From: Ktedonobacterales bacterium
GTDB taxonomy: Bacteria; Chloroflexota; Ktedonobacteria; Ktedonobacterales; JADMIN01
Direction: 5' to 3'
DNA length: 32,000 nucleotides
Assembly (NCBI GenBank): GCA_030167145.1
Contig: CP126532.1
Coordinates: 4,410,001-4,442,000 of the forward strand
Part shown: positions 213 to 27,111 of the stretch, one piece after another
How the letters are laid out: every line of letters begins with the position of its first letter
Numbering within the stretch: the stretch's first letter is position 1
The notes under the pieces: model-generated
Told to the model about the DNA's origin: nothing
What the model saw: the letters and a program-made list of their open reading frames with translations, nothing else
The model's database searches: none
Position numbers and translations under genes: made by a program

Positions 213-425
213 GCGCACCTCCAGATGTGTAGATGTCTGCCGCGACGAGTGCGTTCCCCTACGCGGTGGGCGCGCTGCCGAGCGGTAGCCAAATGGGCGG
301 CGCCAGCGCGGCGCGAGGCGGCATCAATGCGTATAATATGGGGTATGCTGCCACTCATCCGGCGCAACGTATGAGACGATGTGACGGGAAGACGCAGCGG
401 CGCGGCGGAAACCGCGCCATCGCTG

Positions 426-454
426 ATTATACCATAGCTGTTTCGGCCAGACAA
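426..454 (-). promoter_or_regulatory. Putative sigma70-type promoter for nuoA: TTGTCT, 17-nt spacer, TGgTATAAT (extended -10)
   Basis: The minus strand reads TTGTCT (454-449), a 17-nt spacer, then TATAAT (431-426) preceded by TG (434-433). This would give a leader of about 200 nt to the nuoA GTG at 212. Confidence 0.5.
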
Positions 455-559
455 CGCGCTTGCCGCTTGTTCAGCCGGTCTGGGACATTCGTACTCTCCA
501 CCGTTCCCATTGTGCCAACGGTCAACAGAGACGAGAACGCTGCCAGGATTGAGGGTAAG

Positions 560-1183
560 ATGACGCTACTGGAAACCGAAACCATAGATGGGCTGAATGT
601 CCTGTTGGAAGATCAGCGCGCCAGTGTCGAGATTCTGCTGGCGCTGGCGAACGGCGCAACCGAGCGCGCCGAACGTGAAGTCTTTCAGGCGATGGGCGGC
701 GAAGCGGTTCTGGGCTGCTGTGTGCTGCGCGAGTATCTGGACGGTGCGGAAGGCGCATCGGTAAGCTGGCGCGTCAACGGTATCGTCTTCCCCATAGTCG
801 GCCAAGAAACCTACGATGAGCGCCTGCGCGCGTATGCCACCTTTCTGAAGGATATATGTGATCGCGTCGAGGGATTCGTGCCCGACATTCCAGATGTCGC
901 GGTGCGGCAGATATTGCGCGACATCTACACCGCGAATCTGCTGGCGGCGCGCTGGTGCTCGCAACGCGCGGAGGTCTTTGCCGAGAGCCGCACGATGGAG
1001 TTTAGCAAAACCAGATCGCTGATTACCGGCGTCACCCCGATTACTGAGGAAATGGAACTGGAACGCGCCGCACTGACACAGGAGCCAGAGACTGCGCCGT
1101 TCGCGCGCCCCCATCGCCCCGACCGCGCCGCCGAAGAGGCCGAATATCTTGGCGAGCAGGGCGAGATGCCCGATACGTTTTAG
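560..1183 (+). CDS. Hypothetical protein (207 aa); the N-terminal helical half loosely resembles ferritin-like DUF6306 proteins
   Basis: Track ORF 233..1183. I prefer ATG 560 (MTLLETETIDGLNVLLEDQRASVEILL...) because GAGGG (551-555) precedes it and the upstream 109 codons are Arg/Ala-rich low-quality sequence in a promoter-like region. In-frame GTG 512 is an alternative start. The family assignment is weak, by eye only. Confidence 0.55.
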   Translation: MTLLETETIDGLNVLLEDQRASVEILLALANGATERAEREVFQAMGGEAVLGCCVLREYLDGAEGASVSWRVNGIVFPIVGQETYDERLRAYATFLKDICDRVEGFVPDIPDVAVRQILRDIYTANLLAARWCSQRAEVFAESRTMEFSKTRSLITGVTPITEEMELERAALTQEPETAPFARPHRPDRAAEEAEYLGEQGEMPDTF

Positions 1184-1635: not shown

Positions 1636-1856
1636 CCGTTTGGCGCCTTGCGCTCATTCCAGCAGCGCCGCGAAGGGGCCGCAGCTATCGGTTTCGCCAG
1701 GCGCGGTCAGGAAAGTCAAGAGATAGCCACCTGGCCTGAATGGCTTTGCTGTGCTATATCTCTCCTATATATCCCTGGCATTGGCGACCAAGCAAACGCC
1801 CGATTACGGATGCGAGCGAATGGCAACCCTGGCAGAGCCGGATGGGAGGGAAGCGC

Positions 1857-4382
1857 ATGGCGATACAATCGGCACACCACCCGGCGGAGAACACGCCTCC
1901 CATCCCGTTGCGGCTCTTCAATACGCTCACGCGGCAGCGCCAGACCTTTGAACCCCTAGAGCCAGGCCGTGCGCGCATGTACAGTTGCGGGCCGACCGTA
2001 TACCGCTACATCCATATTGGCAACCTGCGCACCTTTGCTATGGCGGATTGGCTGCGTCGCACGCTGATCTACCAGGGCATCACGGTGACGCATATCAAGA
2101 ACATTACCGATGTGGGGCATATGCGCCAGGAGGTGCTGGATCGCGGCGAGGACAAGATGATTGCTCAGGCGCTGCGCGAGGGCAAGACTCCCTGGGAGAT
2201 TGCGGAGTTCTATACCACAGCCTTCCATCAGGATGAGGCCGCGCTGAATATCCTGCCCGCACAGGTCTTCCCCCGCGCGACCGATCATATCCCTGAGATG
2301 ATCGCGCTGGCCCAACGCCTCCTCGAACGCGGCTATGCCTACGAGGCGGAGGGCAATGTCTTCTTCTCTGTGCAGGCGTTTCCCGGCTATGGGCAGTTGA
2401 GCGGCAACCGGCTGGAGCATATCGGCCAGGGCCTGCGCACCGAGACCGAACTGAGCGGACTAAAGCGCGCCCCTGAAGACTTCCCGCTGTGGAAGCTGGC
2501 CGAACCGGGCCGCATGATGGCATGGGATAGCCCGTGGGGACGCGGCTTCCCTGGCTGGCACATCGAATGTAGCGCGATGAGCGCGAAGTATCTGGGCGAG
2601 CAATTCGACATCCACACCGGCGGCATTGACAACTTGTTTCCCCATCACGAGGACGAGCGCGCGCAGAGCGAGGCAGCCAGCGGCAAGCAATTCGTGCGCT
2701 ACTGGGTACACGCACAGCATCTCCTCGCCGACGGCCTGAAAATGGCAAAATCCACCGGCAACGCCTACACCCTGGCGGATATTCAGGCGCGCGGCTTCGC
2801 GCCACTAGCGTTGCGCTTCTTCTTCACCACGGCGCACTATCGCAGCCGCATCAATTTCACATTTCGCGGATTGCGCGCGGCACAGACGGGACTCGAACGC
2901 CTATATGAGTGTGCGTACCGGCTCAGCGCCGAAGCGCATGGCGCTTCCGATGCAGCCGGTGAGTTACGCCATCATCTCTACGCGCGGGCATTTCTGACCG
3001 CAGTGAATGACGACCTGAACCTGCCACGCGCTATGGCGGTGGTCTGGGCAATGGTGCGCGACCAGAACACGCCACCCGAAACGCGGCTCGCGCTGCTCTA
3101 CCTCTTTGACAAGGTGCTCGGCTTCGGGCTGGCGGACGCCGTGCGGCAGCGCGACGCGGACCGGCGCGTGTGGGCTGCTGGCGTAGACTCAACAGGCGCA
3201 ACGCTCGAAGCCAATGAGGATATACCCACAGCGGTGCTCACTGTGGCGCGAGAACGGGCCTCGGCGCGAGCACGCCGCGATTTCGCGGCGGCAGACACGC
3301 TACGCGGCCAACTGGCGGAATTGGGATACTCCGTGGGGGATGGTGCGACTGTAACACGCCTTATGCCCATACGCGAGCGTGAAGAGCTGATGAGCAGTTC
3401 CACTGATGTCCCTTCCCAGCTAGAGGCGCCCGCACGCTTTGCCTTTTCGGTTCATCTGCTCGCGCACAACAACCGCGACGACCTGGAACGCTGTGTCGAG
3501 AGCGTCTGCCGCGCCGCTGGCGATCAGCGTATCGAACTGGTCATCGTTGATAATGGCTCGACCGACGAGACGTTGCCCTATCTGCGCCACCTGCAACGCC
3601 AGGGCGAGCGTCACGGCGTACCCCTGCGGGTGTTTTTCGCGGACCACGACATGGGCTTTGCGGCGGCGCGCAACGCGAGCGTGCGAGCAAGCCTGGGCGA
3701 GATCGTGGTGCTGTTGGATACCAGCATCGGGGTGACCGGCGACATCTGGACGCCGATCTCCACAGCGCTGGCAAATTCCACCATTGGGCTGGTGGGTCCG
3801 TTCGGATTGGTGACGACCGATCTCAAAGAGTATGCGGAGAGCAATGGGCCAGATGTGGACGCAATGGAGGGCTATCTGATGGCGTTCCGCCGCGACGCTC
3901 TTCTGGAAGTGGGGCCGATGTACGAAAAGTTTCGCTTCTATCGCCTGGCGGATGTGGATTATAGCCTCGAATTCAAGCGCGCGGGCTTTCGAGTTGTGGC
4001 GCTGCCAGAGCTGGCTGAGCGGATCGTTCAGCATCCACACCGCGAGTGGCACAGCCTGACGCCCGACGAACAGGCGACGAAGAGTAAGAAGAACTTCGAC
4101 ATCTATTGGAAACGGCGGCATCATGCGGAGAGCCTGCTTGTCGCGAACTACACCGCAGGTCAGGCCGCGCCGTGGGGCCACGACCACGAGATCACGCCAC
4201 CGGACGAAGCGGACCCACGATTTGAGCATGGCCCGACTCATGGTGACGAGTCGCTGCACGCGCATGAGCACAAGCACTGGCCGGACCACGCTCATACGCA
4301 CGCACATGTCCACACATCCGCGCTGCGCTGGCACGGCAACGAGCAGCGCGCGACCTATGCGGGAGGGCAGCGTGACCACTGA
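1857..4382 (+). CDS. cysS: Cysteine--tRNA ligase fused in frame to a C-terminal family-2 glycosyltransferase domain and a His-rich tail (841 aa)
   Basis: Start chosen at ATG 1857, with GGGAGGG at 1844-1850. The CysRS core spans about 1857-3390: [24 protein letters not shown] (HIGH-type), NITDVGH...[19 protein letters not shown] (KMSKS-type), and the C-terminal [13 protein letters not shown] helix. The GT2 region spans about 3436-4060: [21 protein letters not shown]....[14 protein letters not shown] ... VLLDTS. The His-rich tail spans about 4179-4340: [33 protein letters not shown]. It is one uninterrupted frame. Confidence 0.9.
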
Positions 4383-5139
4383 AACAGGCATACCGGGCGC
4401 ACTGGCGCTGGTGGGGTCGGGAGAGTATACGGATGCGATGCGGGATACGGATCGCCATCTGCTGGCGACACTCGGCGGGCCGAAAGCGGCGCGAGTGGCC
4501 TTGCTGCCAACGGCGAGCGGGCTAGAGGCTGATGGGCCACGCCACTGGAATGACCTGGGACAGCGTCACTTTGCCCAACTCGGCGTGCATGACATCCGTT
4601 CGTCGTGGATTCTCGACGCGAAAAGCGCGGCGGACCCAGAACAGGTGCGGCTGCTTGGTGATATAAACTTCGCCTACTTTTCGGGTGGCAGCCCGAATCA
4701 TCTGGTCGCCAGTATGCGCGGCTCGCCAGCCTGGGACGCGGTGACGCAAGCCTATCTGCGCGGCGGCGTGCTGGCTGGGTGCAGTGCGGGCGCGATGGCG
4801 CTGGGCGGCGCGACACTCTCCGTGCGGACGCTGCTCTCCGGTGGGCGCGCGGATTGGGTGGAGGCGCTGGGCATTGTGCCTCATCTCGTAGTGTTCCCAC
4901 ACTTCGACCGTTTCCTCGGCATGATGAGCAAGTCCGCGCTGCGCACCCATCTGCTCGCGCTGCCGCCCGGAATGATCGCCATCGGCATTGACGAAGATAC
5001 GGCGCTGGTACGGCTGACGCCGCCAGATGCCGCCACCGGCCGTGCCCACTGGCGCGTGATGGGCCGGCAAGGTGTCGCGCTGTTCCGGCGCGACGCGGAT
5101 ATGGAGCAACTTGCCACAGGCGACGAAGTAGAGTTGTAG
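4372..5139 (+). CDS. Peptidase S51 family protein (cyanophycinase / dipeptidase E-like, class I glutamine amidotransferase-like fold)
   Basis: LALVGSGEY...VALLPTAS...YFSGGSPNHL...GCSAGAM (nucleophile-elbow Ser)...PHFD. Start taken as GTG 4372, 4 nt after GGGAGGG (4361-4367); in-frame ATG 4357 is the alternative. Either start overlaps the 3' end of the cysS fusion (stop 4380-4382). The 5' part of track ORF 4123.. is a shadow of the cysS tail. Confidence 0.8.
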   Translation: MTTETGIPGALALVGSGEYTDAMRDTDRHLLATLGGPKAARVALLPTASGLEADGPRHWNDLGQRHFAQLGVHDIRSSWILDAKSAADPEQVRLLGDINFAYFSGGSPNHLVASMRGSPAWDAVTQAYLRGGVLAGCSAGAMALGGATLSVRTLLSGGRADWVEALGIVPHLVVFPHFDRFLGMMSKSALRTHLLALPPGMIAIGIDEDTALVRLTPPDAATGRAHWRVMGRQGVALFRRDADMEQLATGDEVEL

Positions 5140-6413: not shown

Positions 6414-7166
6414 GTGGACAAGTTTTTGCAGTTTTTGGGCAACATCGGCGACACATTTCGCGGTTTGCTCGAACTCTGGGGTGGGCTGGCCTTCTTGGGG
6501 CACGCGGTGCTGTTCGGATGGCGGCGGTTGCGGGGTAAGGCGCCACTCGCCGCGGCAGCGGCTGTTACTGCCGCAACTGCCGCAACTGCCGCAACTGCTA
6601 CAGCCACCGCTGCTACCGCCTCGCCAGAGTATCGGCCTCCTGCTATACCGCAGCCTCCCGCTGCACTGCCAGCCCCTGCCCCTCCACCGATGGCAAAGCC
6701 TATGTCGCATAGGGAGACTCCGGTTACATCCTATCCGCCGGTTACGCCCTACCCTCAGGCCGCTCGCCCTGCTGTTCCTACCAGGGGCATCAAGCGCATA
6801 AAACGTCCCTGGCTGTCCCTCGTCGCGGGGGTAAGCTCTATACTATATCTAGGAGGATTTCTACTAGCCCTTGCATCCACCCCTACTAGTCCCGACCCTA
6901 CCACCGGTACATATGTCTATGGCCCCGCGTTCGGAATCGGCATTATCACAATGGTCCTTGGGTTTCTCCTTGCGCTGACGGCTGTCATCTGGGGGATAGT
7001 GAGCGCACTCAGAGCACGCCAATGGGGCTGGGCCGTAGGTATACTACTTGGCGCCATTGGCACATCTTTCCTGTTTCTCCCTGGCCTACTCCCGCTCCTG
7101 TATGCCATACTGGCGCCAACCGGCGTGCGGACTCCTAATCCAGTGCCGGTGATGGCTGGGCGATAA
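6414..7166 (+). CDS. Hypothetical membrane protein with an Ala/Thr repeat, a Pro-rich linker and C-terminal TM helices
   Basis: 250-aa ORF starting at GTG. The C-terminal half has clear hydrophobic helices (WLSLVAGVSSILYLGGFLLALA; FGIGIITMVLGFLLALTAVIWGIV; WAVGILLGAIGTSFLFLPGLLPLLYAIL). The N-terminal extent is uncertain; internal ATGs at MAKPMSH are possible starts. Codon choice (cta, ata, tct) is atypical for this window. Confidence 0.6.
   Translation: MDKFLQFLGNIGDTFRGLLELWGGLAFLGHAVLFGWRRLRGKAPLAAAAAVTAATAATAATATATAATASPEYRPPAIPQPPAALPAPAPPPMAKPMSHRETPVTSYPPVTPYPQAARPAVPTRGIKRIKRPWLSLVAGVSSILYLGGFLLALASTPTSPDPTTGTYVYGPAFGIGIITMVLGFLLALTAVIWGIVSALRARQWGWAVGILLGAIGTSFLFLPGLLPLLYAILAPTGVRTPNPVPVMAGR
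6567..6598 (+). repeat. Perfect 9-bp tandem repeat (ACTGCCGCA) x3.5, in frame, encoding (TAA)n
   Basis: Read directly: actgccgca actgccgca actgccgca actgc. It lies inside the 6414 ORF, in the protein segment AVTAATAATAATATA. Confidence 0.95.
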
Positions 7167-8885: not shown

Positions 8886-9141
8886 TTGTCCACCTTCATC
8901 TGACAGGCTCTATCAAGCCAACGAACTATGTAACATAGTGATAGTTTATCAGACGATGCAGGCACCGTCAATCAACTACCCGGACAGTAGACAATTGCCG
9001 CGCACCCACGAAGCAGTGCCTGCGTACCTGCGGCCAGAGCAGATGGTTTTGGGCATACACATATAGAGGCGGATAGTGGGGTGATAAGGCAGAGGTTAGG
9101 GCGATACAACAGATGCGCGTGAGTGCCCATAAAATACAAGG

Positions 9142-9214
9142 TGAGGCCGGCGGGACTCGAACCCGCGACACGAGGCTTAAAAGGCCCCTGCTCTGCCAAC
9201 TGAGCTACGGCCCC
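9142..9214 (-). tRNA. tRNA-Lys (anticodon UUU)
   Basis: The reverse complement folds by hand into a cloverleaf. Acceptor GGGGCCG/CGGCCTC; D arm GCTC-AGTTGGCA-GAGC; anticodon arm GGGGC-CTTTTAA-GCCTC (anticodon TTT); variable GTGTC; T arm GCGGG-TTCGAGT-CCCGC; discriminator A. Genomic bases after the discriminator are CCT, so the CCA end is not fully encoded. Confidence 0.93.
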
Positions 9215-20285: not shown

Positions 20286-21233
20286 CTAGACCGACGACAC
20301 TCGCGCGCGAAACACCCCAGGCGCGCAGCGCAGCGCCAGCGCAGCGCCATCCAGCCGCCACGGCGCGTCGAGCGTCGCCTCGGCGTCGAAATCCAGCGGC
20401 GCAACGAGCCGGAACTCGCGCTCAGGCGTGGCGATCACGATTGGCTGGCCGCGCGCCAGCACGCCCGAGGCGAAGTTATACGCCCAGCGCGCCGGGCGGT
20501 CTGGCGTGATGCGATAGTCCTCCGCGCTGGGCAGCGAATAGCTGGTCGCGCGGCTCTCGTCCTGGGGACGCGGCGCGAGCGTGCCAGCGGCCAGGCCCTT
20601 GAGGCTGGCAATGAGCAGCGGCCCCGCGACCTCAGCGCACATCCGCTCCAGCCGCGCCTCCGAGACGCCATCGCGCATGATGATCGTTTCTTGCGCGAGC
20701 ACTGGCCCGCTATCGAACCCCTCGTCCATCAGATGAATCGTCACGCCAGTCTGCGCGTCGCCGCGTTGAAACACCCAGAACAGCGGATCGGGTCCGCGAT
20801 TGTCTGGCAGCAGCGACGGATGGACATTCAGGCAGCCGAGCCGGGGCAGCCGTAGCACATCGGGAGGCAGGCGGCGCGGAAAGCATGAGACGCAGATGGC
20901 GTCGGGCGCGAACCCGGACAGCGTCGCCAGCGTTTCGCGAGCGCGCAAACGCGCCACCTCGAAGACCGGAACGCCAGTATCGGCGGCGATTTGGCGGATG
21001 CCGCGCTCCACCGGCAGCAGCGCCCGCGCTTTCCGGGACGCGCTCGCGGGTGGTGGAAGCTCGCGAGTCGGCGGCGTTTCCGGCCTCACATCGCCACTCA
21101 GCGCCGCCATCACCACCGCGCGCACATCAATACCCGCTCGCAGCAACGATTCCAGCGGCAGCGCCGACAGCACGCCCGACATGCCGAAGAACACGACACT
21201 CAATTGTGGCCGCAAAGCAGGCTCAGCGCTCAT
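20286..21233 (-). CDS. Formyltransferase-family protein (methionyl-tRNA formyltransferase-like paralog)
   Basis: 315 aa. LNVHPSLLPDNRGPDPLFW (the canonical HxSLLPxxRG motif), TGVTIHLMDEGFDSGPVL, and a C-terminal Fmt-like domain (PQDESRATSYSLP). The N-terminal third carries an atypical Pro/Ala-rich insertion in place of the usual TQPDRPxGRG segment. Confidence 0.75.
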   Translation of the reverse strand: MSAEPALRPQLSVVFFGMSGVLSALPLESLLRAGIDVRAVVMAALSGDVRPETPPTRELPPPASASRKARALLPVERGIRQIAADTGVPVFEVARLRARETLATLSGFAPDAICVSCFPRRLPPDVLRLPRLGCLNVHPSLLPDNRGPDPLFWVFQRGDAQTGVTIHLMDEGFDSGPVLAQETIIMRDGVSEARLERMCAEVAGPLLIASLKGLAAGTLAPRPQDESRATSYSLPSAEDYRITPDRPARWAYNFASGVLARGQPIVIATPEREFRLVAPLDFDAEATLDAPWRLDGAALALRCAPGVFRARVSSV

Positions 21234-21336
21234 TGTGATAGTGTCCTTCGCTCATCAGTGGCGGCGCACGATCTGCCGTCTGATATAGTATCTTACAGAG
21301 ACGACCGCGCGTACGGACGGAGAGGAGCGTGTTCTC

Positions 21337-21675
21337 ATGGCGCATATGGTAGATTGTGTGAAACTTGGCCGCAGGCTGCCGGGGCTGGAAAAGCCGCCCA
21401 TGCCCGGCGAGTTTGGCAAGCGCATTTACGACAACATCTCGCAGCAGGCGTGGGATATGTGGCAGGAACAGTCGCGGCTGATTATCAACCACTACGGCCT
21501 GAATCTCGGCGACCCGGACTCGCGCCAGGTGCTTCGCCAGCAGATGGAAGAGTTCCTTTTCGGCGAAGATGCGCGCATGCCCGAAGGCTGGGTGCCCGAA
21601 GGGCAGGGCGGCAAAGGCGGTGGCGCGCCCGCCAGCAAGGGTGGCGCTCCAGCGGCGGCCCCGCGCAAGAAATGA
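21337..21675 (+). CDS. yggX: Fe(2+)-trafficking / oxidative-damage protection protein YggX
   Basis: V.C.KLGRRLPGLEKPPMPGEFGKRIYDNISQQAWDMWQEQSRLIINHYGLNL.DP..R..L.QQMEEFLFGE aligns by eye along the whole of E. coli YggX. A Gly/Ala/Lys-rich tail follows. Confidence 0.9.
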   Translation: MAHMVDCVKLGRRLPGLEKPPMPGEFGKRIYDNISQQAWDMWQEQSRLIINHYGLNLGDPDSRQVLRQQMEEFLFGEDARMPEGWVPEGQGGKGGGAPASKGGAPAAAPRKK

Positions 21676-23162
21676 TGGACGTGCCCGGCGAGATTCTACT
21701 GGTTTCCTGCTACGAGCTAGGGCACCAGCCGCTAACCCTCGCTTCGCCGCTGGCGCTGTTGCGCGCCGATGGTTTCGCTCCCGTCTCGGTGGACACCTCG
21801 GTGAGCGAGCTGACGGACGAGGTGATACGCGCCGCGCGGCTCGTGGCGATCTCCGTCCCCATGCATACCGCGCTACGGCTGGGCGCGCGTGTAGCTGAGC
21901 GCGTCCGCGCAGCCCATCCATCGGCGCATATCTGCTTCTACGGCCTCTACGCCTCGCTCAACGCCGACTACCTCTTGCGCGAACATGCCGATTTCGTCAT
22001 CGGCGGCGAGTACGAGGCGGCGCTGCTGGGGCTGGCCCGCGCGCTTGCCAGCGGCGATGTATCGCCATCCGTCCCTGGCGTCCGCACGCGCGCAGTGGAT
22101 GCGCCACCAGTGCTGGCGCGCCTGCCATTCGTCCAACCGGAGCGCGCGAGCTTGCCGACAGCGAAGTCCTACGCGCATCTGGTGCGCGGCGACGAAGTGG
22201 TGCCAGCGGGCTATGTCGAGGCCAGTCGTGGCTGCCTGCACACCTGCCGTCACTGCCCGATCACGCCAGTCTACGGTGGGCGCTTCTTCATCGTGCCGCG
22301 CGGCGTCGTCCTCGCCGACATCCGCGCCCAGGTCGCGGCGGGCGTCCGCCACATCACCTTCGGCGACCCCGATTTCCTCAACGGTCCGGGCCACTCGCTG
22401 GCAATTGTCCGCGCGCTGCATGCCGAGTTCCCCGATGTCACCTTCGACGCGACGATCAAGATCGAGCATATTCTGGAGCGGCGCGACGTCTTCCCTGAGC
22501 TTGCCGCACTGGGCTGCGCGTTCGTTGTCTCAGCCGTGGAATCGCTGAGCGCGGAGGTGCTACGCCACCTGAAGAAGGGCCACACCCGCGCCGACGTGGC
22601 TGAGGCGCTGACGATTCTCGATGACGCGGGCATCCCGATGCGCCCAACCTTTGTCGCCTTCACTCCCTGGACCACTGCCCGCGCCTACGTGGACGTGCTG
22701 GACTTCATCGCCGAACATGACCTCATCGAACACGTAGACCCCGTGCAATACACCATCCGGCTGCTCGTCCCCCCTGGCTCCGCTCTGCTCGAAGAAGCTG
22801 ATGCCACCACCTGGCTTGGCCCACTCGATGAGCCAAACTTCACCTATCAGTGGGCTCACCCCGACCCGCGCATGGATGACATGCAGCGCGCGGTGGCGGC
22901 GCTGGTGGAGCGCGAGACAGTGGCGCAGCGCGACAACGCGAGCATCTTCGCGGCGATTCGCGCGCTCGCCGAAGAGATGCTCGGCGTCCCCGCCAGCGCC
23001 CGCACCTGGGGCACACAGCGTGGCGGCGTCGCGACGAAGCGCCGACCCGTCCCCCACCTCACCGAAGCGTGGTTCTGCTGAGCGGAACCCACCGCGGAGC
23101 AGTTGGCTCCCCACGATTCATCCACGCCAGTACATTGGCGTCCGTTCACCCCAGAATTATAG
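21672..23162 (+). CDS. B12-binding-domain radical SAM protein with an in-frame UGA (selenocysteine) in a C-U-A-E-P tail
   Basis: Start ATG 21672 overlaps the yggX stop (ATGA). MMDVPGEILLVSCYELGHQP... is a B12-binding-like N-domain, and SRGCLHTCRHC is the CX3CX2C rSAM cluster motif. The track ORF stops at TGA 23079-23081, straight after ...EAWFC. The next codons are GCG GAA CCC (AEP) and the frame stays open to TAG 23160-23162. If TGA is a true stop the CDS is 21672..23081. The 681-nt 5' extension in the track (from 20991) overlaps the fmt-like gene and yggX and is rejected. Confidence 0.8.
23082..23110 (+). promoter_or_regulatory. Candidate bacterial SECIS: two hairpins immediately 3' of the UGA
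   Basis: Hairpin 1: GCGG (23082-85), loop aaccca, CCGC (23092-95). Hairpin 2: GGAGC (23096-23100), loop aguug, GCUCC (23106-10). The second apical loop contains G and U and starts 19 nt after the UGA. Folded by hand only. Confidence 0.5.
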
Positions 23163-23470
23163 GGCGGCGGTGGGCTTGGTTGTTCACCGTCGTTCGTCGT
23201 TGTTCGTCCTGGGTGGGGTCGGCATTGGGGTCACAGATGTTTTGTTGGCTGCTGATGAAAAGTCCCCTGGATGGGCCCATCACTGCTTGACAGTGCCAGT
23301 CAATGCTGAATTTTTCACGCCTTGATATCGCCGTTTGCCTGCCAGTGTTTATGGGTGTTCACTCTGTTGGCTACCAATTAGGCTGTCAAGATTTATGCGC
23401 CTTGTTGAGATACGTGCTGAGATACGTCTAGAGTGCCTGCGAAATCTGAGTTCCCACCTGCTGGTGGTTA

Positions 23471-23944
23471 CTAAGGTATTTGTGCGCGAGTAGTGGGTAT
23501 CGCGAGCAATTGTGACTCTGGTACACCGAGTATCTGGGCTAACTTGGACCAAAATGCCTCGGTGGTCAGCCGCCCTTCCGAAGTGTCCCACGAGATGGTA
23601 CCGCATCCCTCCGGTGAGGCGACTGCCCTCATAAGAACCTGAGAACTGCGGGAAAATGTCAACTCAAATCTTAGGCCGAAATCAACGGGACAACTCACAT
23701 CACCCTTAGGCCCGAACGGCAAAGACGGAATGAGAGTATACAGAGATTGGACTAAAGTACTCGTTACGGTGCGATCAAGTGGGGCGGCTTCATTGCTTGG
23801 CAAGATAACGTAGCGCACAACGCGAAGGGACGAGGGCATAGCAGTGGAATGGCCAAGCACACTACTTGGATCAGTATGGCCGCATGCAGTCAACAAGATG
23901 GGCATGCAGATCATCAGGAGAACAACCCATCGCCGGGCTAACAT
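23471..23944 (-). CDS. Hypothetical lipoprotein (157 aa)
   Basis: ATG 23944 follows GGAGG (23955-23951) by 6 nt. MLARRWVVLLMICMPILLTACGH is a signal peptide plus lipobox L-T-A-C. No family recognised. It lies in a lower-GC segment. Confidence 0.65.
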   Translation of the reverse strand: MLARRWVVLLMICMPILLTACGHTDPSSVLGHSTAMPSSLRVVRYVILPSNEAAPLDRTVTSTLVQSLYTLIPSLPFGPKGDVSCPVDFGLRFELTFSRSSQVLMRAVASPEGCGTISWDTSEGRLTTEAFWSKLAQILGVPESQLLAIPTTRAQIP

Positions 23945-24298
23945 GAGATACCTCCACTTGTGCGGGACCAGTGCGGATACTGCAGCCGCTAGGCCATGCG
24001 TGACGTTGAGCACTAAGGCTGAATCATCTGCGCTCCTTACTCGTGGTGAGCTACCCATAACGCGAGCGCCCTCCACCACAGATAATTACGTTGTGACACC
24101 ATCATCACAGGTGTGAAATGAAGCATACCCTGGCAAGGTGCCTGGGCCAGTAGGCAAGGTATACATGTAGAGCCCAGGCACGCTATGAACTCAATCCTCC
24201 GGTGCCGAACTCATACAGATCAGCGCAGAGCAAGGACACCACACCTATTCCGGACGAGTTCGGCGTCCAATGTTGGCCTCACCCACGCTTCGGCATGG

Positions 24299-25324
24299 CT
24301 ACGAACAGTAATAGCCGTCGTTCCCGGTAAAGATCCAGGAGTCGGTAAAGATGGTGCCATTATTCATCAGGCCGCTTACCGAGGTCATCTGAGCACCAAG
24401 TGTATCGTACATCGTGAGTTGGTCGTTTGGCCAGCCAGAGATACCGTGATTCGTGGACCCCTGGGAGGCATCTGCCTTTGTCCACGCCACTTGATCGATT
24501 TGCTCATAGTAGTGAGGATGGGTGACCCCACTTATTGTGCATGAGGGCCGTTCCTCAACCCATTCTGCACTCTGCTGATTCGGCCGCACCTTGTAAGTAA
24601 CGGAAGTGTACTTGTTTGTGTACTCATTGACGACGACAAAATAGGAGTACCCAGAAACGTTGACACTCCAGTCAGCTTCAGCGTAAGTTAGCTGACGGCA
24701 CGTCGGAGCGATATTGGCGAAGTACTGTATGTTGTTGTTCGGGTACATCTCCCACCAATACCGATATCCGTTGACAGCATCAGACTCGCTTCCTCCTTGC
24801 CAAAGAGAAGTTGTAGGATATCCGCCAAGGCCGACCCACGAGACTGCTAAGGGCTTCCCGCCAGACCCTCCCTGGTAGCAGGGTACCACCCATGTGCCTT
24901 CCACGAGCGTGAATCCGGAGCCAGTCGCTACGTAGCCTGACCAAATGGTATTGGTTCTGTAAGAAGTGCTGTAGGGTTGCAATTGGAAATTCGCTGGTGC
25001 CGATTGTGAAGCATCGCAGACCCTATGTTTTGAGTGATGCATAGCTTGCACCCAATCGGCCAACTGCGCACTTGATCCTCGTGGGCGGCGAGGCAACCCA
25101 TAAGTGAGCAACTGCTGATCTGAACTGCTCAAGGGATCAAAAGTTGGCGGGGGTTGCAAGCAAGTCTTCTGGCCTTGAAAGTACGCTGTGACCATAGGAT
25201 CAGAAGTAGTTGCTATATATCCCCGTGTCGCATGTGCTTGAATGAGCGAAGCGCTGGGGATGGCCGCCACTGACGATATCAGTGCAAGAAGGAAGGCTAA
25301 TACCGCGTTCTTGGACGTCTGCAT
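24299..25324 (-). CDS. Secreted glutamic peptidase homolog (peptidase G1 / Pfam Peptidase_A4, eqolisin-like)
   Basis: Signal peptide MQTSKNAVLAFLLALISSVAAIPSA and a pro-region of about 110 aa. Then TIWSGYVA.G..F..V.G.W.VP, AVSWVGLGG, LWQGG (candidate catalytic Gln), YRYWWEMYP, SAEWVEERP (candidate catalytic Glu). The order and spacing match scytalidoglutamic and aspergilloglutamic peptidases. ATG 25324 lies 8 nt after GGAGG. Confidence 0.7.
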   Translation of the reverse strand: MQTSKNAVLAFLLALISSVAAIPSASLIQAHATRGYIATTSDPMVTAYFQGQKTCLQPPPTFDPLSSSDQQLLTYGLPRRPRGSSAQLADWVQAMHHSKHRVCDASQSAPANFQLQPYSTSYRTNTIWSGYVATGSGFTLVEGTWVVPCYQGGSGGKPLAVSWVGLGGYPTTSLWQGGSESDAVNGYRYWWEMYPNNNIQYFANIAPTCRQLTYAEADWSVNVSGYSYFVVVNEYTNKYTSVTYKVRPNQQSAEWVEERPSCTISGVTHPHYYEQIDQVAWTKADASQGSTNHGISGWPNDQLTMYDTLGAQMTSVSGLMNNGTIFTDSWIFTGNDGYYCS

Positions 25325-25337
25325 TCCTACCACCTCC

Positions 25338-25376
25338 GAAATAACTCAGCCTTGAGGATTCTCCTCAACAAGGCTG
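25338..25376 (-). terminator. Terminator-like hairpin plus U-rich tail directly upstream of the G1-peptidase RBS
   Basis: CAGCC-TTGAGGA-ttc-TCCTCAA-caa-GGCTG (25347-25376). On the minus strand it is followed by AGUUAUUUC (25346-25338), then GGAGG (25337-25333). Confidence 0.4.
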
Positions 25377-25797
25377 CTCAAACAGCGACATGCCTATGAT
25401 AGCATCTGTATACTAGAGGTCCAGAATAGTAATCACATATAGTACTATTTGGCAGGTACAGGGTACGGGTGCAGAAACTCAAATCCTAGATGGACTGAGA
25501 TGCCTTGATTATTGGGTACGCGAAATATAGACACGGATATAGATACACAGGCGGTTGTTGGAAAGCGTGTAGACTGATCAGTACTGATGAGGCAACGGCC
25601 GCTTTCGGGGTGGTGTGTGGCAGATGGCTTAGTTACGGGAGGGATGTTCAGAGAGCACTGTATCTCAGATTCCTTGGAAGTTCTTTAGCATATGACTGGC
25701 TGTTAGACGCTGATTGCAACGTGCAATGGCAAGCGCATAGTATGGTGCTGCTCGGCTATCGGCTTGAGTCACCACATGGGATGGACCGTAGCGGTAT

Positions 25798-27111
25798 TTA
25801 ATCTCTGCGTCGCGCGCCGAAGCCGAACCACACGATCAGCAGCACCGCGCTCAGCGCGTAGAACGGCATCGCCGCGAAGAACGACGCCTGATAGCCCGCC
25901 AGCGCGATCAGCCAGCCGCCCACCCCCGCGCCCAGCGCGCCGCCAACCTGAAAGCTCACGTTGTACGCGCTGCTGGCGTTCACACGCGACTTGTCGGGTA
26001 CTGCCCCCATCAGATAGGTCTGCAGCGGTGGCGTCGTCACGGCCATCAGGAAACCGCGTATCAGATACGCCAGCGACGCAATCACCACCACCGGGAACGC
26101 GCCGATAGCCACCAGAAACGGCAGCGACGCGACCTGCGCCGCGATACCCGTGCGCATCGTGCCCCACCGCCGCGCCAGCGGGATCGCCACCAGCGCCGCC
26201 ACCGCTATCGCCACCGAATACACCGTCGTCAGCACGCCGAAATACGCCGTCGAAACGCCTAACTGGTTGACGAAATACAGATTGGCATAGGGAAAGAAGA
26301 TGCCCGCGCCGAAACCGACCAATCCCTCCGCCACCGCGAACCGTCCCGCCACGCCCACCGCTCCCACGCGTACCGCCCGCAGCCATGCTCCCATCCGCGC
26401 CCTGAGCGGCGGCGCGAGCATATCATCTCCAGCGCTTCCTGTCGCGGCTGTCGCCTTGCGCGGCTCCTCGCGCATCATAAATACCGGAATGATCGAGGGC
26501 ACGGCGATCACCCCCGTCGCCAGCAGCGCCAGTTCGTAGGCCTGCGCCTTTGCGCCAGAGACGAGCAGTGGCTGTAGCGCCTGCATCCACGCCGAGGACT
26601 GCACCTCCGCGCTCAGGAACCACCCAGGCAGGAATCCGCCAAGCAGCGTCCCGATGATCGTCGCCAGGAACACCAGCGCGTTATTCAAGCCAAAGAGCGA
26701 GATGCGCTGCTCGGCAGTGCTGTAGGTCGTCAGCAGCGGCGTATTGATCACCAGGAACAGCGCCAGCGAGATCCCCACACCTAGCGTCGTCACCAGCACC
26801 ACCGGCGGCGTCGGCACGATCAGTTGCGCGGCGATGGAGAAGCCGCCGATGAAGTTCGACCAGAGCAGGAAGGCGCGATACCCCGCGCGATGCGCCAGCG
26901 GGCTGGCGATGACGATGCCCAGCGCCGCGCCAATAGCGCCCACAACCGTGACGATGCCGATGAACTTGGTGCTATAGCCCAGCGCGTTGAGATACAGCGT
27001 ATACAGCACCACGGCTGCCCCGGCCGTTGGCGCCTGCATCGCATTCGAGATGAGATACAGCCGCGCGTTGCGCTGGAGCGCGCGAAAGCGCGCGAGCAGG
27101 TCACTGAGCAT
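25798..27111 (-). CDS. MFS transporter
   Basis: About 12 hydrophobic segments with an MFS-like loop pattern (LAHRAGYRAFLLW, PLARRWGTMRTG). ATG 27111 (MLSDLLARFRALQRN...) is preferred; it overlaps the upstream gene's stop by 11 nt. The track start at 27201 would overlap by 101 nt. Confidence 0.85.
   Translation of the reverse strand: MLSDLLARFRALQRNARLYLISNAMQAPTAGAAVVLYTLYLNALGYSTKFIGIVTVVGAIGAALGIVIASPLAHRAGYRAFLLWSNFIGGFSIAAQLIVPTPPVVLVTTLGVGISLALFLVINTPLLTTYSTAEQRISLFGLNNALVFLATIIGTLLGGFLPGWFLSAEVQSSAWMQALQPLLVSGAKAQAYELALLATGVIAVPSIIPVFMMREEPRKATAATGSAGDDMLAPPLRARMGAWLRAVRVGAVGVAGRFAVAEGLVGFGAGIFFPYANLYFVNQLGVSTAYFGVLTTVYSVAIAVAALVAIPLARRWGTMRTGIAAQVASLPFLVAIGAFPVVVIASLAYLIRGFLMAVTTPPLQTYLMGAVPDKSRVNASSAYNVSFQVGGALGAGVGGWLIALAGYQASFFAAMPFYALSAVLLIVWFGFGARRRD

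Follow-up and report, generated by a model that had tools for sequence, protein, structure and literature searches.

A cysteinyl-tRNA synthetase continued by a GT-A glycosyltransferase-like module and an alternating-histidine motif in a Ktedonobacterales bacterium

The window analysed here is a stretch of 32,000 nucleotides from a Ktedonobacterales bacterium (GenBank assembly GCA_030167145.1, contig CP126532.1, positions 4,410,001 to 4,442,000), and positions below are counted from its first letter. Our subject is one plus-strand gene, at 1857 to 4382, whose product is a cysteinyl-tRNA synthetase (CysRS) continued in the same frame by a glycosyltransferase (GT) module of the GT-A type and a histidine-rich end. 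In the following list, AF2 stands for AlphaFold2 and pLDDT for its per-residue confidence score.

1844..1850, plus strand: Shine-Dalgarno sequence GGGAGGG, 6 nt 5' of ATG 1857, read from the sequence
1857..4382, plus strand: the whole CysRS-CysS_C-GT-A-His-motif gene, 841 aa and stop (open reading frame list, Pfam, NCBIfam, homologues)
1908..2882, plus strand: CysRS catalytic core, aa 18-342 (PF01406, E 7e-98; motifs invariant in 17-43 homologues)
2883..3218, plus strand: CysRS helical bundle, aa 343-454 (weak DALR_2 Pfam match; confident AF2 helices; aligns to 1u0b)
3219..3368, plus strand: CysS_C anticodon-binding mini-domain, aa 455-504, including a 33-letter signature stretch (PF23493; E. 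coli CysRS 414-458)
3369..3437, plus strand: linker with the 'SSSxDxPxxLxEP' strap into the GT module, aa 505-527 (alignments; intermediate pLDDT)
3438..4151, plus strand: GT-A/GT2-like module, aa 528-765 (PF00535 above gathering; AF2 pLDDT ~97; Foldseek match to GT-A, E 1e-12)
3549-3566, plus strand: DNGSTD nucleotide loop, invariant in the close fusion family
3717-3725, plus strand: D621-T-S623, at the DxD position by alignment
3729-3731, plus strand: G625 (codon GGG), Glu in relatives by alignment
3951-3953, plus strand: putative catalytic Asp D699, aligned to the 'ED' catalytic-base Asp of K4CP
4032-4049, plus strand: HPHREW, invariant in the fusion family
4173..4187, plus strand: W-G-H-D-H motif, aa 773-777 (W, G, H and H invariant, D at least 90% conserved in 17 homologues)
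4257..4313, plus strand: alternating-His motif of 19 residues, aa 801-819 (9 His and WPD invariant in a 17-sequence alignment)

The gene lies in a single uninterrupted open reading frame (ORF), 1740..4382 on the plus strand, that would give 880 aa if read from its first ATG. We place the start at ATG 1857 because of the Shine-Dalgarno sequence, because homologue N-termini start just ahead of 'LRLYNTLTR' in the alignment, and because an identical 841-aa product has already been called as a gene on a 5.07-Mb public contig (NCBI/IMG), a finished genome that probably comes from a cultured strain. Pfam finds tRNA-synt_1e at aa 31-342 (E 7e-98), CysS_C (PF23493) at aa 455-496, Glycos_transf_2 (PF00535) at aa 531-621 (E 1e-15; 58.4 bits, the gathering threshold being 23.3) and Glyco_tranf_2_3 at aa 667-724. 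ORF and Pfam matches bear out the first-pass annotation of this DNA, made from the letters alone, which had described a CysRS, a family-2 GT (GT2) domain and a His-rich tail continuous in one frame. Every motif it quoted (41 letters from the domains, 19 from the tail) is found in the translation. Two of its figures need correction: the GT domain, put at about 210 aa, measures about 238 aa (528-765), and the end of the protein is indeed rich in His, with a hand count of 15 in the last 75 residues and 12 in the last 50 instead of some 14 in about 50.

Residues 1-504 of the window protein form a complete CysRS, like bacterial CysS (E. coli 1LI5/1U0B; the HIGN-subtype enzymes 3SP1 and, from Elizabethkingia, 6UJD), with which they share the Rossmann core, the zinc ligands, the KMSKS-type loop, the helical bundle and the C-terminal mini-domain. 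The core holds HIGN, KMAKS (295-299) and W234, and its zinc ligands C44, C238, H263 and E267 align to what we take to be C28, C209, H234 and E238 of E. coli CysRS; the ligands and W234 are invariant in homologues. The sequence aligns over its full length with E. coli and Coxiella CysRS, C-terminal mini-domain included, and the full-length AF2 model (predicted TM-score 0.75) superposes on 461 of the 461 residues of tRNA-bound E. coli 1u0b_B with a TM-score of 0.82. Against the cysS model TIGR00435 it scores 423.2 bits, above the equivalog cutoff of 340. Among the fusions, 125 of 126 retain CGPTVY, HIGN, WHIEC, HHExE and KMxKS. Every CysRS-family feature that was tested (the TIGR00435 score, HIGH/KMSKS-type motifs, zinc site, anticodon domain) was found, so the catalytic, zinc and anticodon-domain signatures of a part that had been called complete are all intact. 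Predicted from these signatures, the CysRS part is probably a functional enzyme, and the housekeeping one; a housekeeping CysRS with an appendage, one of several options raised for this gene beforehand, is the best supported among them. A degenerate CysRS was also considered, on account of HIGN in place of HIGH and of an 11-residue insert following NITDV. It was ruled out, as HIGN with the insert marks an ordinary subtype, represented among solved CysRS structures by 3sp1 (Borrelia) and 6ujd and also found in the unfused actinomycete CysRS of locus L013. Unlike characterised CysRSs, the window protein carries about 340 extra C-terminal residues, the GT-A module and the His motif.

The fusion is a genuine, conserved architecture. 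Among 5.8 billion proteins searched, more than 120 full-length homologues turned up (55-70% identity, 89-100% coverage, 776-913 aa), all of them with PF01406 and PF00535 and all bearing the public label of plain 'cysteine--tRNA ligase'. Where named, they belong to metagenome-assembled genomes (MAGs) of Ktedonobacterales/Ktedonobacteraceae and to one Kouleothrix. Their alignment keeps the linker motif 'SSSxDxPxxLxEP' at the junction of CysRS and GT module. A genome scan with very specific patterns, uninformative on divergent paralogues, found 14 loci with one copy each; the fusion is intact in 13 species-representative genomes, and neither stop nor frameshift separates the domains in 13 of the 14 genome loci. 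A check for a frameshift or assembly break, proposed along with the original description, thus finds no break here and the same junction in the homologues and in 13 genome loci. The fusion gene is split in L011 (~7470) and L019 (~7950), both of them MAG or long-read assemblies, and the L019 break is one frameshift within 'FPHHE'; these splits are probably assembly errors rather than true gene fissions.

Mean pairwise identity is highest in the CysRS catalytic core (0.75), closely followed by the His motif (0.74) and the GT core (0.68), and falls to 0.42 in the helical/anticodon region. From these values, purifying selection appears to act on the GT module and the His motif nearly as strongly as on the CysRS core. 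The window sequence deviates at four of about 305 columns conserved at 90% or more, and the three deviations besides G625 are conservative.

The GT module is predicted by AF2 to adopt a GT-A fold, at pLDDT ~97, and includes a key basic helix of 16 residues. This helix, DNGSTD, D621, D699 and HPHREW are all invariant in the fusion family, and in a set of 125 fusions the DNGSTD loop is kept in 118 and the first Asp in 122. Like GT2/GT-A enzymes (PF00535), the module combines the GT-A fold with a DNGSTD loop and with an Asp where K4CP has its 'ED' catalytic base; towards its C-terminus, an HxH recalls the additional His that serves as a metal ligand in some GT-A enzymes. Unlike typical GT-A enzymes, it has D-T-S for DxD, lacks transmembrane segments, and is uniquely preceded by CysS_C. 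The GT2 assignment holds, and the domain is not degenerate overall, the DNGSTD loop and D699 being kept though the DxD has become D-T-S. No curated GT subfamily was reached: the best curated matches are MftF, EpsD and TuaG, all far under cutoff (for MftF, TIGR03965, 42-64 bits against 280). PADLOC anti-phage models matched neither the GT module nor its standalone relatives, described next.

These relatives came from a profile search with the GT module over 1.84 billion representatives. The 673 matches at E<=1e-30 took in the fusions, a number of giant multi-GT2 proteins of generic type, and numerous complete proteins of 300-345 aa in which 50-80 residues precede the GT module. Those residues carry the motif of the CysRS C-terminal mini-domain, 'R..AR..KD[WFY]..AD.LR..I...G..V.D', and in alignments match residues 414-458 of E. 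coli CysRS as well as the final ~45-50 positions of cysS models. A follow-up search raised the number of standalone CysS_C-GT proteins (~310 aa) to at least 1,433. Most of the 120 listed were already annotated with PF23493 and PF00535 and labelled only 'glycosyltransferase'; where named among the matches listed, they belong to Limnocylindria/Chloroflexota and to Actinomycetota. In three long contigs the standalone gene lies away from cysS, with too short a space upstream for a catalytic domain. Full CysRS proteins with CysS_C-GT occur in Ktedonobacteria, Chloroflexia and a Dehalococcoidia-like clade. Of 500 family proteins, CysRS+CysS_C+GT accounts for about 140 and CysS_C+GT for about 182; most GT-only entries are either fragments or giant multi-GT2 proteins of generic type. 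Residues 455-765 of the window protein fit this CysS_C-GT family, with CysS_C upstream and the motifs DAxEGY, FxFYRxxD, HxHRxW and SK(K/R)N. Judged by domain architecture, this GT module is part of an uncharacterised family; in its complete members, with few exceptions, CysS_C lies directly upstream. The gene model of the window was public already, annotated only as CysRS; what is new is the CysS_C-GT coupling.

The mini-domain that travels with the GT module is described by Pfam itself as an anticodon-binding domain (PF23493). In 123 fusions and 132 standalone proteins alike, conservation is 98% or more at the positions that match E. coli R423, R427, aromatic-432, D436, R439, G446 and D451; the GT modules of the standalone lineages are only 30-57% identical. 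R427, W432, D436, R439 and D451 presumably contact the GCA anticodon in 1U0B, the E. coli CysRS-tRNA structure that Hauenstein and colleagues reportedly described in 2004. In one orthologous fusion the aminoacylation motifs are degenerate. P0246 (745 aa, L020 8001-10238), encoded at a locus syntenic with a normal fusion, has DINQ for HIGN, PDIECL for WHIECS and KMATR for KMAKS, and keeps its full length and intact GT motifs; its genome must have another CysRS. As far as sequences can tell, the GT module is coupled in evolution to the anticodon-binding mini-domain and not to the Cys-activating site. The idea of a tRNA-dependent function, voiced in the first-pass annotation for a Cys-activating domain tied to a sugar transferase, is therefore supported in another form, in which the GT module tracks anticodon binding.

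The His-rich end has a narrower distribution. The pattern HxHxHxHWPDHxHxHxHxH was found in 110 of 125 fusions and in 0 of 128 standalone proteins, is limited to a Ktedonobacteria/Chloroflexia clade, and follows conserved WGHDH and RRHH elements. AF2 predicts it, at low confidence, as a beta-hairpin; a search for PDB or Pfam relatives of the tail found none. A deeper CysRS-GT fusion clade (Dehalococcoidia-like, ~42% identity in the GT module) stops right after the GT module, and since it has no tail, the fusion should be older than the His motif. The His-bearing fusions form one clade, the only one that a neighbour-joining tree resolves among fusion and standalone GT modules. The His-rich metal-binding tails of HypB, UreE, SlyD and COG0523 proteins vary in length and sequence. 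The tail studied here resembles them in its very high His density and in an HxH alternation suited to binding Ni or Zn; it differs in that a pattern of 19 residues is invariant across two bacterial classes and accompanied by WGHDH and RRHH. A metal site, as suggested earlier for this tail, is plausible, and would reside in an invariant alternating-His motif rather than in loose low complexity; HxHxHxHWPDHxHxHxHxH is a candidate new metal-binding element. The motif also occurs in P0222 (331 aa, on a 1.7-kb contig), behind an OmpR/AfsR-type Trans_reg_C N-terminus and the C-terminal half of the GT module; this protein is a recombinant or else an assembly chimera.

How might the parts work together? 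We tentatively favour a reading in which a working CysRS uses its CysS_C domain to position the GT-A module for action on, or gating by, tRNA(Cys), while granting that it may well be wrong. The CysRS part would charge tRNA(Cys), CysS_C would grip the GCA anticodon, and the adjoining GT-A module would thereby come to lie beside the anticodon stem-loop. As CysS_C would hold the anticodon of tRNA(Cys), the work of the GT-A module would be done on the bound tRNA(Cys) or be gated by it; the likeliest activity would be to modify, with a nucleotide-sugar as donor, a nucleoside of the anticodon loop or close to it. Within the fusion protein, one tRNA-binding event could serve both charging and the second activity. 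The His hairpin would bind a divalent metal (Zn, Ni or Mn), for a GT site devoid of DxD, for metal supply or for sensing. In its most specific form, that of a tRNA(Cys)-specific, nucleotide-sugar-dependent nucleoside modifier guided by CysS_C, acting in trans in the standalone forms and receiving from the His hairpin the catalytic metal in lieu of the absent DxD, the proposal is doubtful.

Domains appended to aminoacyl-tRNA synthetases (aaRSs) usually bind tRNA or edit mischarged products. Two known enzymes have a related logic: GluQRS/YadB, a GluRS paralogue, attaches glutamate to Q34 of tRNA-Asp, and in vertebrates the GT2 enzyme QTGAL/B3GNTL1 attaches galactose to Q34 of tRNA-Tyr. In the one an aaRS-derived recognition element, in the other a GT2, is put to use on the anticodon loop, and the likeness to them is one of logic; by domain architecture alone, both ideas meet in the standalone CysS_C-GT proteins. 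Unlike the targets of GluQRS and QTGAL, tRNA(Cys) does not contain queuosine. No description of an aaRS-glycosyltransferase fusion was found in the literature, which was only weakly covered. The family, with at least 1,400 proteins, is an apparent case of an aaRS anticodon-binding mini-domain put to new use in targeting a GT-A enzyme, and an entry point to a possible new tRNA(Cys) modification, or to tRNA-gated glycosylation, in Chloroflexota and Actinomycetota. If the most specific form of the proposal were true, the fusion would be the first bacterial tRNA glycosyltransferase of the GT-A type and the first aaRS that, in cis, modifies its cognate tRNA in the anticodon loop, and the free-standing CysS_C-GT proteins of Limnocylindria and Actinomycetota would do the same job in trans.

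Several observations weigh against tRNA(Cys) as the target or the gate. D-T-S replaces the canonical DxD throughout the family, where it is aligned to the DSD/DAD of K4CP and 6p61. Position 625 is Gly in the window copy and Glu in 41 of 42 relatives. In the standalone members the DNGS loop is kept in only 5 of 128 and about a quarter are without the first Asp, so that part of the family may be non-catalytic. The GT module is acidic in fusions and standalone proteins alike (isoelectric point 5.4-5.8, net charge about -8), a character atypical of an RNA-handling domain. By Foldseek and profile comparison, its structural neighbours are only generic GT-A enzymes: an uncharacterised Leptospira GT (6P61), ppGalNAc-Ts, PcManGT and K4CP; MftF, the mycofactocin GT, also ranks among its nearest known relatives. 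In three deep-branching fusions of 709-735 aa (P0260, P0275, P0290) the catalytic core is intact and CysS_C undetectable. We know of no glycosylated nucleoside in a bacterial tRNA(Cys), no tRNA-Cys gene was found nearby, and no conserved partner gene was found near the fusions at the loci compared.

The acidity, the three fusions in which CysS_C is undetectable, and neighbours that act on peptides and polysaccharides would all be in keeping with an ordinary CysRS whose GT-A module transferred sugar to a small molecule, a protein or a glycan unrelated to tRNA. The best curated matches, to the small-molecule and polysaccharide GT2s MftF, EpsD and TuaG, lean the same way, far under cutoff as they are. 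CysS_C would then persist because the module arose by duplication or fission at that boundary, or as a structural partner of the GT fold. However, a passive remnant leaves unexplained why the CysS_C motif residues keep a conservation of 98% or more across the 132 standalone proteins while their GT modules have diverged to 30-57% identity, and why the pseudo-CysRS P0246 maintains a full-length scaffold; nor were conserved sugar or glycan genes found near the loci examined. We regard such a moonlighting enzyme as possible and on the whole rather unlikely.

The D-T-S in every member, the G625 of the window at a near-invariant Glu position, and the loss of the DNGS loop in standalone proteins speak instead for a module that has ceased to be an enzyme, a pseudo-glycosyltransferase that binds nucleotide-sugar, metal or tRNA and so regulates or stabilises CysRS. 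It could, for instance, make the supply of Cys-tRNA depend on the status of metal or sugar-nucleotides, the His hairpin being a zinc reservoir or sensor for the zinc site of CysRS; the strict conservation of the His motif, in what is a zinc enzyme, would suit this. Yet in the fusions the DNGSTD loop and the first Asp are retained at the frequencies given above, along with the Asp at the catalytic-base position and the HxH, and all of them are invariant in the close family; the GT core is about as constrained as the CysRS core; and the tail-less clade maintains its GT module in the absence of any His motif. We consider this explanation unlikely.

The first-pass annotation had looked to mycothiol biosynthesis, and proposed an undescribed pathway to a cysteinyl-glycoside. 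Here a CysRS-like domain would join Cys to a glycoside that the fused GT produces, in a new route of the mycothiol or bacillithiol kind. The precedent is MshC (3C8Z, 8HFM), which is like the window protein in its homologous Cys-activating Rossmann core with a zinc site and likewise joins cysteine activation, conceptually, to a glycoside; the covalent tie of a Cys-activating domain to a GT fits the idea, as does a PIG-L gene (the MshB/BshB-type deacetylase family) 3.3 kb from one standalone gene, in L017. The protein, however, scores as cysS and not as MshC (TIGR03447, 217.7 bits, below the cutoff of 485.1), and it keeps the full tRNA-binding apparatus. MshC matches end near query residue 396-403, consistent with our understanding that MshC is without an anticodon-binding domain, whereas this domain is present and conserved in the window protein. 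Cutoffs (218 versus 485) and domain content thus rule out an MshC-like ligase. In mycothiol synthesis the GT, MshA, is moreover a separate enzyme of a different fold class, the GT4 type, to which BshA also belongs, and the module here is a GT2. It also tracks the anticodon domain, in standalone proteins that have no activating domain and in a pseudo-CysRS that retains the GT. Finally, no conserved thiol-pathway gene, be it deacetylase or acetyltransferase, was found beside the fusions at the loci compared, and we hold the thiol pathway to be highly improbable.

The split genes of the MAG/long-read loci L011 and L019 are what could be said for an artefact, a frameshift or assembly chimera that merged two separate genes, and this is next to impossible and was ruled out, given the continuous frame here, the same junction and conserved linker shared by over 120 independent homologues that come from many samples, the 13 intact genome loci and the identical 841-aa product on a 5.07-Mb contig.

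Two further features of the window bear on the surroundings of the gene.

4393..5139, plus strand: Peptidase_S51 (cyanophycinase-like) gene, 10 nt 3' of the fusion stop (Pfam; NCBIfam below cutoff)
9140-9214, minus strand: tRNA-Lys(UUU), the only RNA gene found in the window

The Peptidase_S51 gene is probably co-transcribed with the fusion. Its position downstream is conserved only in the three closest loci (L001, L002, L011). A 34%-identical S51 gene (L017 8412-8841) lies 5.5 kb from an actinobacterial standalone CysS_C-GT gene, within a cluster of PIG-L, PLP-decarboxylase and S51 genes; the presence of S51 near both a fusion and a standalone gene may be coincidence. Upstream of the glyoxalase and cysS genes, a 316-aa ORF (233-1183, plus strand) gave no Pfam or NCBIfam match; in L001 and L011 it is conserved as well, ahead of the fusion and at 41% identity. 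No conserved operon that would reveal function was found: only the three closest loci have the S51 gene and an upstream ORF in common, and the contexts of standalone genes are unrelated. Neither a T-box nor any other Rfam element was found upstream of cysS. At L016, ARAGORN reported a 92-nt 'tRNA-Arg(tct)' (6683-6774) inside the coding sequence of a standalone CysS_C-GT protein, probably a false positive.

Elsewhere in the window, GC content drops to 0.53-0.55 at 23000-26000, compared with 0.60-0.69 in the remainder. This region holds two minus-strand ORFs without Pfam match (23471-24079 and 24299-25333) and may be acquired DNA. A 696-aa B12-binding radical-SAM protein is encoded at 20991-23081 (plus strand), and begins with a long extension, about 230 aa, in which no domain was matched. 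Nearer to the fusion, a 250-aa ORF at 6414-7166 (plus strand), with an Ala/Thr-repeat, Pro-rich N-terminal half, a hydrophobic C-terminal half and no Pfam match, coincides with a strongly negative AT skew in that kilobase.

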